Virus genome (UHGV): UHGV-0173505
Length of the DNA: 32,704 nt
Source of the DNA: a virus
Reading direction: 5' to 3' (one strand)
Part shown: piece after piece, positions 249 through 2,918 of the stretch
Layout: each line of letters opens with the position of its first letter
How positions within the stretch are numbered: the first letter of the stretch is position 1
Translations under genes and position numbers: made by a program
Notes under the pieces: model-generated
Database searches by the model: none
The model's input: only the letters and a program-made list of their open reading frames with translations
Told to the model about the DNA's origin: nothing

Positions 249-518
249 TTACCTTAGACGCCATGGGCCCCTATCTTCAATCTGTTCGACTAACCCCTCC
301 TCTTCTAGTTCACGCAATAGTGCAACAACCCAATATTGTTGGTTCGAACTTGTGGCTTTCCGTTTTTCTCCCCAATCGAGGCCGCTTAGACGAAATACCT
401 CAGCTTGCTTAACGCCGTTGCCGTTTTTTTGGGCATCTGGGTGAGTTTTAAGTACGGATAAAGCCAATTCTTTGGCTCTGTTGCGCAATTCCGCTCCCTG
501 ATGCTGAAACTTATTCAT
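249..518 (-). CDS. Hypothetical 89-aa protein between attL and int (accessory gene; basic C-terminus, possible DNA-binding)
   Basis: Complete ORF with ATG at 518 and weak GGAG upstream; followed by the terminator at 116-143; no family recognised. Confidence 0.4.
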   Translation of the reverse strand: MNKFQHQGAELRNRAKELALSVLKTHPDAQKNGNGVKQAEVFRLSGLDWGEKRKATSSNQQYWVVALLRELEEEGLVEQIEDRGPWRLR

Positions 519-576: not shown

Positions 577-1608
577 TCAAAAACTTGCTATTGATGTTGG
601 TAGTGTTGCCAGCGGATTAAACCGTAATGCAGTTTCCAGGTGATCCGGTGCTAGATGTGCGTAACGCATAGTCATTTTTATGTCGTGATGTCCGAGGATT
701 TTTTGCAAAGCAAGGATATTTCCACCCGACATCATAAAATGCGCCGCAAACGTATGGCGCAGAACGTGTGTCAGTTGACCGCGAGGGAGCACGATAGACG
801 TTTTTTCCATCACGGATAAAAATTGAAAATAGCAGTCTGTGAAGAAATTGAACCCATCGAGCGCCATGATCTCTTCGTAAAGCTCTTTACTGATAGGGAT
901 GCTTCTGTTTTTCTTCCCCTTCGTTCTGACAAAGGTAATTCGGTATTTGGTCACCTGTGAGCGGGTAAGGTTTATTGCTTCTCGCCAGCGTGCGCCTGTG
1001 CTTAAGCATATCTTGACTACCAGTGCCAGAATTGGGTCCTGACGTTTGCAATCATCCAGCAGTTCAACAATCTGCTCATGGGTAAGCCATGCCATCTCTT
1101 TTTCTGCGATGGTGAATTTTCGCATGTTCTCCAGTGGGTTTGGATACGACCATTCGCCCAGGCGGGATAGTTCGCTAAAAACACTACTTAGATAGCTTTG
1201 CTCCAGGTTAATGGTGACCGGGCTGGCCCCTTTCTTCCATTTCTCGCTGAAGTAGATCTCACCTGTCAGTCGTTTATCTCGATAATGGGCAAACATTTTA
1301 GATGTGAGATCGGTTGCAAGGGGATTGCCCAGAGCGTCAACCATCAGCAGCAATTTGTCATAGACATGCTGCCCAGCAGTCAGAGATTTACCATGTAGTT
1401 TGAACCATAGCTCAACCACGTCTTTCAGGGTTCGACGATCTACTGATTCGCCCAGCCAGGGCTTTGCTTCGGTTTCTTCCATCGTGTGACGCTCAAAAGC
1501 CAGTGCTTCGCCTTTGGTGGCGAATTGTTTACGCACACGACGCCCACTACGTCCGGCGGGGTAACATTCGCAAAGCCATTTTCCTGTGGTGAGTTTTCGT
1601 ACTGCCAT
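577..1608 (-). CDS. int: Tyrosine integrase, P2/186 type
   Basis: C-terminal R...HxxR...Y catalytic motifs (LRHTFAAHF...MTMRYAHL); start moved to ATG at 1608 (MAVRKL...) with GGAGGG RBS; the track ORF extends further upstream to 1686. Confidence 0.9.
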   Translation of the reverse strand: MAVRKLTTGKWLCECYPAGRSGRRVRKQFATKGEALAFERHTMEETEAKPWLGESVDRRTLKDVVELWFKLHGKSLTAGQHVYDKLLLMVDALGNPLATDLTSKMFAHYRDKRLTGEIYFSEKWKKGASPVTINLEQSYLSSVFSELSRLGEWSYPNPLENMRKFTIAEKEMAWLTHEQIVELLDDCKRQDPILALVVKICLSTGARWREAINLTRSQVTKYRITFVRTKGKKNRSIPISKELYEEIMALDGFNFFTDCYFQFLSVMEKTSIVLPRGQLTHVLRHTFAAHFMMSGGNILALQKILGHHDIKMTMRYAHLAPDHLETALRFNPLATLPTSIASF

Positions 1609-1794
1609 AAAAAATGCCCTCCAATAGAGAGCATTTTTACTGTATGTATAACCAGTGTCAATGTATGAAATCTTGCGACCATACATCTCACTGAAGCCAT
1701 AATGAAGTTGGCTATTTTTTGCTATGTGAGTATGTGACTTTTGCGGTTAGCCTGCGGCTCATTGTTATATTAGGCGCAGATATAAAAGCAAAAA

Positions 1795-1986
1795 TTATCG
1801 CGAGTTTTTAGTACAGATTTTTTTTGATTTACTAATGGTTCCATCATTGCAAACGAACTTTCCATCGGAGGTACAGTGAGAGACACCTCCCTTTTTCCCA
1901 GAACAAGGATAATTTTTAGCATAGGTAGTTAGTGGGTTTAATAACAAAGAGCATGATAAAACCACAAAAAATACCTTACCAAGCAT
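1795..1986 (-). CDS. Small secreted cysteine-rich lysine-rich protein (63 aa; predicted signal peptide, cleavage after TYA)
   Basis: ATG at 1986 with GGGAG RBS 15 nt downstream of the cI stop; hydrophobic N-terminus then about 40 aa with 4 Cys and many Lys; AT-rich. Confidence 0.5.
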
Positions 1987-2001
1987 AGTTTACTCCCGGT
2001 A

Positions 2002-2571
2002 TTACCTAACGTACTTAATTGTTAAACTTATAATTTTTCCAATTATTTCAACATCTTCTATCTTGCACTCGAAGGATCTGTTTCCACCTTCAACGAAGAT
2101 TCTTCCACCGGGTAAACGAGTAATGTCGCGGATTGTTATTTCGCCATCAATACTTATTACCCATTTACCATCACGTATATCATCAAATTCTTTATCACAA
2201 ATAAATTCAGAATTGTTATCTGTGATGACAAAAGGTTTTTTAAACGTAGAGGGTAGAAATCCCTTATCAAAAATATAAAAACCGTCTTCACGCAAGGCAC
2301 CATCAGATAATACATACTTAGCAACTTCCATCGTATTTGTATTACCTGAAGTTTGCTTTGAACCATGTCCAGTTGTGAGCCAATTAAGCGAGGTGCCCGT
2401 TTCAAGGGCGCACTGGATTACCCATTCTGCTGGGAATGAGTCACGCATGTAGCGTGTAGCGAGTGTACTTTTAGAGATTCCTAAATGATCGCACAACGCC
2501 TGTCGAGTTTTGAATCCATAAGCTTCTACCATGCGCTCTATAGCGCCTCGTCCGCCTTTCTCCAAATTCAT
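2002..2571 (-). CDS. cI: 186-type CI immunity repressor (N-terminal HTH, non-autocleaving C-terminal domain)
   Basis: About 190 aa, HTH near the N-terminus (ALCDHLGISKSTLATRYMR), divergent from apl/cII; no Ala-Gly/Ser-Lys LexA-type motif seen; ATG at 2571. Confidence 0.75.
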   Translation of the reverse strand: MNLEKGGRGAIERMVEAYGFKTRQALCDHLGISKSTLATRYMRDSFPAEWVIQCALETGTSLNWLTTGHGSKQTSGNTNTMEVAKYVLSDGALREDGFYIFDKGFLPSTFKKPFVITDNNSEFICDKEFDDIRDGKWVISIDGEITIRDITRLPGGRIFVEGGNRSFECKIEDVEIIGKIISLTIKYVR

Positions 2572-2577
2572 GGTCAC

Positions 2578-2696
2578 TCCAAGTGAACTTTTATCTTGAC
2601 GATTTCATGATGCGATCGTATGTTTATGGTGTTCACAAAATACAAACGATCCGTATTCGTCCTGATTAATCATCATTAAACGAGGAATGTTGCATC
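2578..2696. promoter_or_regulatory. Immunity switch region between cI and apl (lytic and lysogenic promoters and operators expected)
   Basis: Intergenic region between divergent cI and apl; TTGACG (2596-2601), 17-nt spacer, TATGTT is a candidate rightward promoter; AT-rich partial palindromes. Confidence 0.35.
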
Positions 2697-2918
2697 ATGA
2701 GACCTAACATTTCAATCACTCTTACCACGCCTCATGTGACTATTGAACGCTATAGCGAGCTGACAGGACTGTCCATCGATACCATCAATGACATGTTGGC
2801 TGATGGACGCCTTATCCGTCACCGTTTGCGTAAAGATAAAAAACGCGAAAAAGTGATGATCAACATAGCAGCCATGACCGTTGATGCGCTTTCAGAATGC
2901 AATCTAAACCTTAATTAG
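2697..2918 (+). CDS. Apl/Cox-like excisionase and lytic-switch regulator
   Basis: 73-aa basic protein, first gene of the rightward operon opposite cI, as 186 apl / P2 cox. Confidence 0.5.

Follow-up and report, generated by a model that had tools for sequence, protein, structure and literature searches.

The viral genome UHGV-0173505, a window of 32,704 nucleotides, opens in the host gene rcdA, of which it holds the 3' end, and continues as a 186-like prophage of E. coli, whose lysogenic operon carries a 63-codon open reading frame (ORF) between the repressor gene cI and the integrase gene int (Table 1). We found that this ORF is a gene of the YdcA family and that it is cargo of the prophage. 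Direct reading bore out the original prediction, made from the sequence alone, of a 63-residue frame that starts with ATG behind a GGGAG ribosome-binding site, 15 nt past the cI stop and co-oriented with cI and int. The cI stop codon TAA occupies 2004-2002, the spacer between it and the ORF reads TACCGGGAGTAAACT, and the GGGAG site (1997-1993) stands 6 nt upstream of the start codon. Family matches at E 4e-34, together with an excess of synonymous differences between alleles, set the ORF beyond a chance reading frame. The stretch had also been described as AT-rich compared with its neighbours, which is true relative to int (35.4% GC in the ORF against 47.6%) but is a trait shared with cI (39.6% overall, 33-35% in its 3' half) and with the spacer between the ORF and int (37.1%); with the whole window at 52.2% GC, AT-richness is a property of the entire immunity segment and not of the ORF alone.

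The cargo status of the gene emerges from a comparison with related phages. In phage 186, with its annotated lysogenic operon pL-cI-int-orf69-terminator, the cI stop overlaps the int start, and in the prophage studied here about 390 bp separate the two genes. The corresponding slot of vB_EcoM-813R9 (L167:3091-4767) encodes a 558-residue protein annotated as 'chromosome segregation ATPase', whose match to the anti-phage defence protein PD-Lambda-1 reaches E 3e-120, and that of the Klebsiella phage 4LV2017 encodes a 349-residue protein. Since cI abuts int in phage 186 and relatives carry other genes in the slot, the ydcA-like gene is true cargo; the earlier view that it lies outside the 186 core and constitutes a moron holds to this extent, with the site being empty in phage 186 and variable among its relatives. 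By the same sequence comparison the cI-int junction of 186-like phages appears to be a cargo slot expressed with the repressor. Cargo in the lysogenic operons of temperate phages is familiar from rexAB, which follows cI in lambda, and from old, tin and fun of P2; such genes are accessory, lack a counterpart in the reference phage and are placed for expression with the repressor, as is the gene described here. In contrast to cytoplasmic defence enzymes, its product is predicted to be periplasmic and is only 4 kDa in size. For P2-like prophages, a 2026 survey reported a minor defence hotspot in the integrase-primase region (PMC13586616).

A ydcA-like gene behind the repressor is not confined to this prophage. 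The order cI, ydcA-like gene, int recurs in prophages of three Yersinia species, and in Buttiauxella one additional gene separates cI from the ydcA-like gene. In the Haemophilus phages HP2 and S2 we found an unannotated 60-codon ydcA-like ORF whose first base is also the final base of the cI stop codon, with orf1(S) sitting between this ORF and int; the HP2 reference genome accordingly gains one unannotated gene. Free-standing copies of the domain are encoded by P2-like phages (of E. coli, Yersinia and Haemophilus) as well as by tailed phages that infect Moraxella and Acinetobacter. Querying the phage collection by megablast with the segment from cI through the ORF to int gave no match, the relatives of this segment being prophages within bacterial genomes, and a scan of IMG/VR retrieved near-identical copies only.

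A YdcA-family protein with a constrained cysteine core

The product of the ORF matches the NCBIfam model NF007463 (YdcA; PRK10040.1-2) over the whole profile (positions 1-58 of 58) at E 4.2e-34, its 116.1 bits exceeding the cutoff of 93, and it matches phrog_6000 at E 4.6e-34. The Pfam family PF27300, named YdcA, has a precomputed match on a cluster representative (P0001) that is 97% identical to the product. Against NF007462, the equivalog model for the K-12 protein, it scores 68 bits, under the cutoff of 118, and it thus falls into the NF007463 subgroup instead. RefSeq labels it 'YdcA family protein' or 'hypothetical protein'. The gene therefore belongs to an already catalogued family and is no novel orphan; Pfam and PHROGs scans gave no functional match for the product. 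The homology search that had been suggested for the peptide thus led to a family which the original prediction had not recognised.

The family is widespread. Among 1.84 billion cluster representatives, searched with a profile, 457 families were recovered at E <= 1e-3 from alpha-, beta- and gamma-proteobacteria, where its members are mostly chromosomal. The prophage gene is present in 643 of the 5426 complete E. coli genomes (about one in nine), and the identical protein occurs on more than 1000 public contigs. Its chromosomal paralogue in K-12, ydcA (b1419), encodes a product that shares 57% of its residues with the prophage protein and differs little from it in the core: in both, a signal peptide precedes the four-Cys core PCSGxKGG[VI]xHC...GKF[VI]CNDG[ST]xSxSKKxC. 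They differ in their setting, with K-12 ydcA located at the chromosomal cybB-rydC-ydcA-hokB locus, between rydC and hokB, and the prophage gene in a lysogenic operon. A search of plasmids, in which flanking genes were not inspected, revealed sporadic carriage with no evident tie to conjugation genes; given this sporadic carriage, the UniRef name 'Conjugal transfer protein' is apparently an annotation artefact. A 3-kb contig (L086, JAEWTL010000113.1) from a metagenome-assembled genome labelled 'Bacillota bacterium' carries an E. coli-type cI-ydcA-int arrangement, with a ydcA-like ORF at 98% protein identity; this contig most likely comes from an enterobacterium and entered the assembly by mis-binning or contamination. 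Several weaker resemblances were set aside: a local Pfam scan gave a chance match only (E 0.068), weak matches to lpg1681_fam (E 0.11) and to Pin-II protease inhibitors (E 0.2-2) were put down to chance agreement in the cysteine pattern, and a resemblance to DUF3761 (CxDGxxSxS...HGGV) is not claimed, Pfam having given no match to DUF3761 at E <= 0.1.

The pre-protein begins with a basic n-region (K4) and a hydrophobic core (mean Kyte-Doolittle value of 2.2-2.7 across residues 1-16), and ends its signal peptide with T-Y-A at positions -3 to -1, the -1 Ala being kept in at least 90% of the homologues. The N-termini of homologues are unrelated in sequence, equally hydrophobic and terminated by A-x-A-like sites. 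These features agree with the signal peptide initially proposed, and we predict Sec-type export of the pre-protein with cleavage by signal peptidase I after TYA (Ala23). The mature part, earlier estimated at about 40 residues with four cysteines and about eight lysines, has exactly those numbers, along with one Arg and two Asp, a mass of approximately 4.3 kDa and an isoelectric point of 9.6; a fifth cysteine (C12) is located within the signal peptide. In alignments the positions P27, C28, S29, G30, K31, K32, G33, G34, C38, F44, C46, D48, G49, S52, S54, K55 and C58 are invariant or near-invariant, and two alignments agree in showing the four cysteines and the GKKGG and CNDGxxSxSK motifs as invariant or nearly so above variable hydrophobic N-termini. 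An AlphaFold2 model predicts a short helix and a small beta-hairpin, with a predicted local distance difference test (pLDDT) score of 82-90 at residues 31-60.

Comparison of two E. coli alleles uncovered 14 differences in 192 nt, 12 of them synonymous and two non-synonymous; the replacements, T20A in the signal peptide and K24R, spare the Cys core. Across 80 species-level homologues the proportion of non-synonymous differences (pN) in the core is 0.20 against a saturated synonymous proportion (pS) of 0.85, with dN/dS at about 0.13, and pN rises to 0.56 in the signal peptide, yet with its hydrophobicity kept. This combination of a drifting hydrophobic signal peptide with a constrained core is, as read from the alignments, the pattern of an exported protein, and the mature core is under strong purifying selection. 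All 82 fetched copies with a matching N-terminus have an intact frame, and together with the allelic differences this agrees with its conservation as a coding gene in related prophages. Taken jointly, the identity of the gene, its export signal, its cargo status and the selection acting on it are well supported, and we hold them with high confidence.

Relatives of the domain in secretion systems and exported nucleases

The sole significant sequence match in the PDB is Dis2 (Lpg0823; 7MUC, 7MUD), with phmmer E 3e-5 and profile E 7.6e-5. A Foldseek search of 350,542 PDB chains also placed Dis2 at the top, with a probability of 0.97 and E 0.11; the same program found nothing among viral structures (best E 0.79). 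The mature part alone aligns with Dis2 at hhalign E 2e-5, and BLASTP yields E 3e-5 and 2e-4 to its two lobes. Furthermore, the domain aligns with both lobes of Dis2 homologues, one of which carries a precomputed PF27300 match, and natural two-lobe (tandem) YdcA proteins serve as intermediates, with CSxKMGGI and CNNG motifs in common with Dis2. The search for Dis2 homologues returned two proteins only (P0229 and P0230), both N-terminally truncated and both with two lobes. Published structures depict Dis2 as two similar lobes pinned by five disulfides, adjoining the outer membrane and in contact with DotK, DotC and DotD, and it has been described as dispensable for assembly and without homologues beyond Legionellales (PMC8486379, PMC12716638). 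From these sequence matches we consider the prophage protein to be a single-lobe relative of this outer-membrane-cap subunit of the Legionella Dot/Icm system, a structural relative that the original prediction had left for a later search to find.

The likeness resides in a short motif, CxxKxGG[VI]xxC...G..VCN[ND]G..S...C, and in both proteins being disulfide-rich and exported, both features being predictions in the case of the prophage protein. The differences are equally plain: Dis2 has tandem lobes and five disulfides, the prophage protein a single lobe with four cysteines in its mature peptide, and Dis2 is assembled into the Dot/Icm type IVB system whereas the prophage gene adjoins cI and int. 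Among these neighbours, the part of the window to which the check for secretion-system genes was confined, there are no type IVB genes. In light of the signal peptide and of the disulfides seen in Dis2 (PMC8486379), the mature peptide would reside in the periplasm, where, by analogy with Dis2, two disulfides probably lock its four-Cys domain.

Beyond Dis2, the domain is found in two further recurrent contexts. First, a long form of 132-140 residues is encoded within enterobacterial type VI secretion clusters in the order TssF-TssG ... TssE-x-[YdcA long form]-(T5orf172 insert)-TssA/VasL (e.g. L105:4995-5399, L147:4917-5333, L121:4986-5393 and about 20 further enterobacterial loci). To the YdcA domain this form adds a linker rich in lysine and, at its C-terminus, the conserved motif QPTCAPLYMxxKPGYTHLPICSGNQY, and in nine species a T5orf172/MUG113 gene is inserted beside it. 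Second, the domain occurs directly after the signal peptide in proteins where it is fused to nucleases of three unrelated superfamilies, namely SNase, Endonuclease_NS and PLD-type enzymes (e.g. P0095, P0156, P0186, P0192, P0168; L130:4989-5936); all fusion partners that Pfam identified, in a scan of 10 multi-domain homologues, are nucleases. Tandem repeats of the domain are present in P0065. We also observed a second Cys module, CxCxxxxxC[TA]GPRGGxYC...K[SN]Y, after the YdcA domain in beta-proteobacterial proteins (P0056, P0057, P0113, P0140, P0162) and in Pseudomonas phage Y12 (L005:780-1118); it echoes a theme, C-x-G-x-x-GG-x-x-C, that the YdcA core shows in its first half.

The lysogenic operon and its surroundings

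The features of the operon are collected in Table 1. The plus strand carries an apl/cox-like gene (phrog_575), cII (PF06892), fil and the replication genes. The divergent apl/cox-like gene harbours the pL-like site in its 5' end, with a geometry identical to that of the annotated phage 186 pL, in that the -10 element ends 4 nt from the apl ATG and the -35 element starts 13 nt inside apl. The site scored below the threshold of the consensus scan, and we assign it as the lysogenic promoter by positional homology. A simple consensus scan revealed no terminator-like site on the minus strand between cI and the ORF. Given the cI-coupled position of the ORF and the lack of such a site, its expression in the lysogen is expected on sequence grounds; co-transcription with cI is predicted, and the ORF is probably translated in lysogens.

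Table 1. Coordinates of the ydcA-like gene and of neighbouring features in the 32,704-nucleotide window
Feature	Coordinates	Strand	Basis and details
YdcA-family gene	1795..1986	minus	ORF list and translation; ATG at 1986, stop 1797-1795, 63 codons + stop
Signal peptide part, residues 1-23	1918..1986	minus	Predicted Sec (signal peptidase I), cleavage after TYA
Mature part, residues 24-63	1798..1917	minus	40-residue domain, 4 Cys, net charge about +7
Spacer between cI and the ORF	1987..2001	minus	Read from sequence; 15 nt, carries Shine-Dalgarno GGGAG
CI repressor gene (186-type), first in lysogenic operon	2002..2577	minus	PF07022 E 2.8e-33, PF16452 E 1.1e-28; RefSeq
Tyrosine integrase gene int, downstream in lysogenic operon	577..1608	minus	PF24624, PF00589; RefSeq start = 1608
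89-codon ORF in the interval between int and the attachment site	249..518	minus	No family match
pL-like lysogenic promoter (by positional homology)	2687..2715	minus	-35 TTGAAA 2715-2710, 17-nt spacer, -10 CAACAT 2692-2687
Structured spacer between the ydcA-like gene and int	1609..1794	minus	RNA fold; 186 nt
Terminator-like hairpin	1609..1638	minus	AAAAAUGCUCUCU-AUU-GGAGGGCAUUUUU, U6 tract; fold energy -17.5 kcal/mol

The spacer downstream of the gene is strongly structured, with the region 1600-1810 (211 nt, the spacer and short flanks) folding at -57.3 kcal/mol against -39.7 +/- 4.2 for shuffled sequences (z = -4.2). The U6 tract of its terminal hairpin is followed by the int AUG, and the Shine-Dalgarno sequence of int, GGAGG, is included in the 3' arm. 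This hairpin is kept in 83 fetched loci and also stands before int in the Klebsiella phage 4LV2017; its presence there despite a different cargo indicates that it belongs to the int side of the slot. Phage 186, in which cI and int overlap, is without it. From its sequence the hairpin probably attenuates transcription into int or blocks translation of int in the lysogen. A promoter-like sequence, TTGACA-17-AAAAAT (10 of 12 matches), is present at 1633-1661 on the minus strand, with its -10 element overlapping the 5' arm of the hairpin; transcripts from this site would be without that arm and would leave the int ribosome-binding site free, and it may be an int-specific promoter.

On the other side of int, the position of the 89-codon ORF is a second variable cargo slot, in line with the int-att hotspot reported for P2-like prophages. 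The ORF has no similarity to Orf69 of phage 186, and E. coli PE15 has a Panacea-domain protein at the same position. No tRNA was found at the attachment end.

Possible roles of the exported product

Based on these observations we propose that the ydcA-like gene is a cargo gene in the variable cI-int slot that would be on whenever the lysogenic promoter drives repressor synthesis, with the hairpin behind it, which also buries the ribosome-binding site of int, probably ending or attenuating the transcript before int. The pre-protein would be exported by Sec and cut by signal peptidase I after TYA, and the resulting domain, with its charge and its four cysteines held in two disulfides in the periplasm, might act close to the outer membrane, on its inner face, as a small cationic module that serves for docking or for the binding of a polyanion, DNA for example. 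The lysogen would thereby gain an envelope-level trait, most probably interference with an incoming phage or foreign DNA. We favour this explanation as a whole, i.e. a YdcA-family cargo gene that is expressed in the lysogen and furnishes an exported cationic module with an envelope-level effect, with moderate confidence. That the exclusion of foreign DNA or phage is the selected benefit is a guess that we advance only tentatively; the product may act in superinfection exclusion, as raised in the original prediction. Small phage-encoded envelope proteins with this activity include T4 Spackle, T5 Llp and Cor of phi80 and N15, which we treat as a lead only. They resemble the present product in being small and exported to the envelope, the export being predicted in our case, and they protect against further infection. 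Conversely, no sequence or fold similarity between them and the YdcA-family product was detected, Llp and Cor are lipoproteins, and the YdcA family, encoded mainly on chromosomes, is conserved to a much higher degree than any of the three.

Several observations weigh against this explanation. The gene product had no match at E <= 0.01 in PADLOC-DB, and the literature searched held no expression or phenotype findings on this gene. The type IV secretion, type VI secretion and nuclease contexts do not converge on one ligand, and the precedent of Dis2 says little on function, its loss having little effect on the Dot/Icm machine (PMC12716638). In the Moraxella and Acinetobacter phages the ydcA-like gene is positioned among the late genes and not after the repressor. 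Finally, a housekeeping envelope role is suggested by the K-12 paralogue: ydcA is reportedly acid-induced through YdcI, and its deletion renders E. coli W sensitive to 300 mM 3-hydroxypropionate (PMC7642389).

The last of these points leads to an alternative in which the gene is a host-fitness moron, the prophage copy adding to the dosage of a chromosomal ydcA-like protection of the envelope against acid or organic-acid stress, with no anti-phage role. The near identity of the cores of the two proteins, the mutant phenotype and acid induction just cited, and the mostly chromosomal distribution of the family all argue for it. However, the phenotype is the single one reported for ydcA and comes without a mechanism, a relative carries a validated defence gene in the same cI-int slot, and the repeated capture of the domain by unrelated temperate phages suggests a benefit relevant to phages; we regard this alternative as unlikely. 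To a similar degree we doubt that the protein is a periplasmic DNA-binding mini-protein, the free domain sequestering or blocking incoming phage, transforming or conjugating DNA and the nuclease-fused domain holding the substrate. Such a function would accord with the restriction of the Pfam-identified fusion partners to nucleases of three unrelated superfamilies, with the strong positive charge and the invariant lysines of the mature domain, and with the copies borne by phages of Haemophilus, Moraxella and Acinetobacter, all of them hosts capable of natural transformation. Nevertheless, it leaves the type VI cluster form unexplained, structure searches found no match to a DNA-binding fold, and the nuclease fusions could equally mean a common need for anchoring in the envelope. 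Moreover, Dis2 contacts DotK, DotC and DotD in the structure, and not DNA (PMC12716638).

The remaining alternatives fare considerably worse. Cys12 might be the lipobox cysteine of an outer-membrane lipoprotein, acylated there instead of the protein being cleaved after Ala23: V-V-L-S-C fits a loose lipobox pattern and UniRef names one Yersinia homologue 'Lipoprotein'. Yet this would leave a signal peptide of 11 residues, which is too short for a lipoprotein signal (as judged from Sec and Lsp signals), and most homologues have no cysteine in the signal peptide while possessing an A-x-A type site before the core. We reject this reading as very improbable on account of the location of the cysteine at residue 12 and its absence from most homologues. 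Even less probable is the bacteriocin-like or toxic secreted peptide raised in the original prediction: the product is small and cationic and is predicted to be disulfide-rich and secreted, but the neighbours of its gene are cI and int, with no adjacent immunity or dedicated export gene and no other family-matching ORF in 1609-2001; a Sec signal peptide would deliver it to the periplasm only; its homologues are single-copy chromosomal genes (K-12 included), type VI cluster genes or domains of larger proteins; and its extreme conservation across classes is unlike that of fast-evolving bacteriocins. A silent passenger, i.e. an intact ORF with no meaningful expression or selection in the prophage, is just as improbable, in view of the synonymous excess and unchanged core of the E. 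coli prophage alleles, the intact frame in every fetched copy with a matching N-terminus, the coding sequence annotated beneath the match in all 24 sampled RefSeq matches, the good Shine-Dalgarno sequence and the close coupling to cI, which extends to the overlap between the ORF start and the cI stop in HP2.

Returning to our preferred explanation of an exported module with an envelope-level effect, a bolder extension would make the YdcA/Dis2-lobe domain an unrecognised periplasmic docking or DNA-binding module of type IV and type VI machines and of exported nucleases, with the free phage-borne domain as a new envelope-level exclusion factor against competing phage or transforming DNA. We think it quite improbable that this extension holds in full, less probable than either the host-fitness or the DNA-binding alternative. 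What the comparisons bring to light is an extremely conserved domain of 35 residues that has been captured repeatedly by temperate phages of several genera, and its three contexts, as a structure in the form of Dis2, as a gene of type VI clusters and as the N-terminal module of nucleases, make its function testable.
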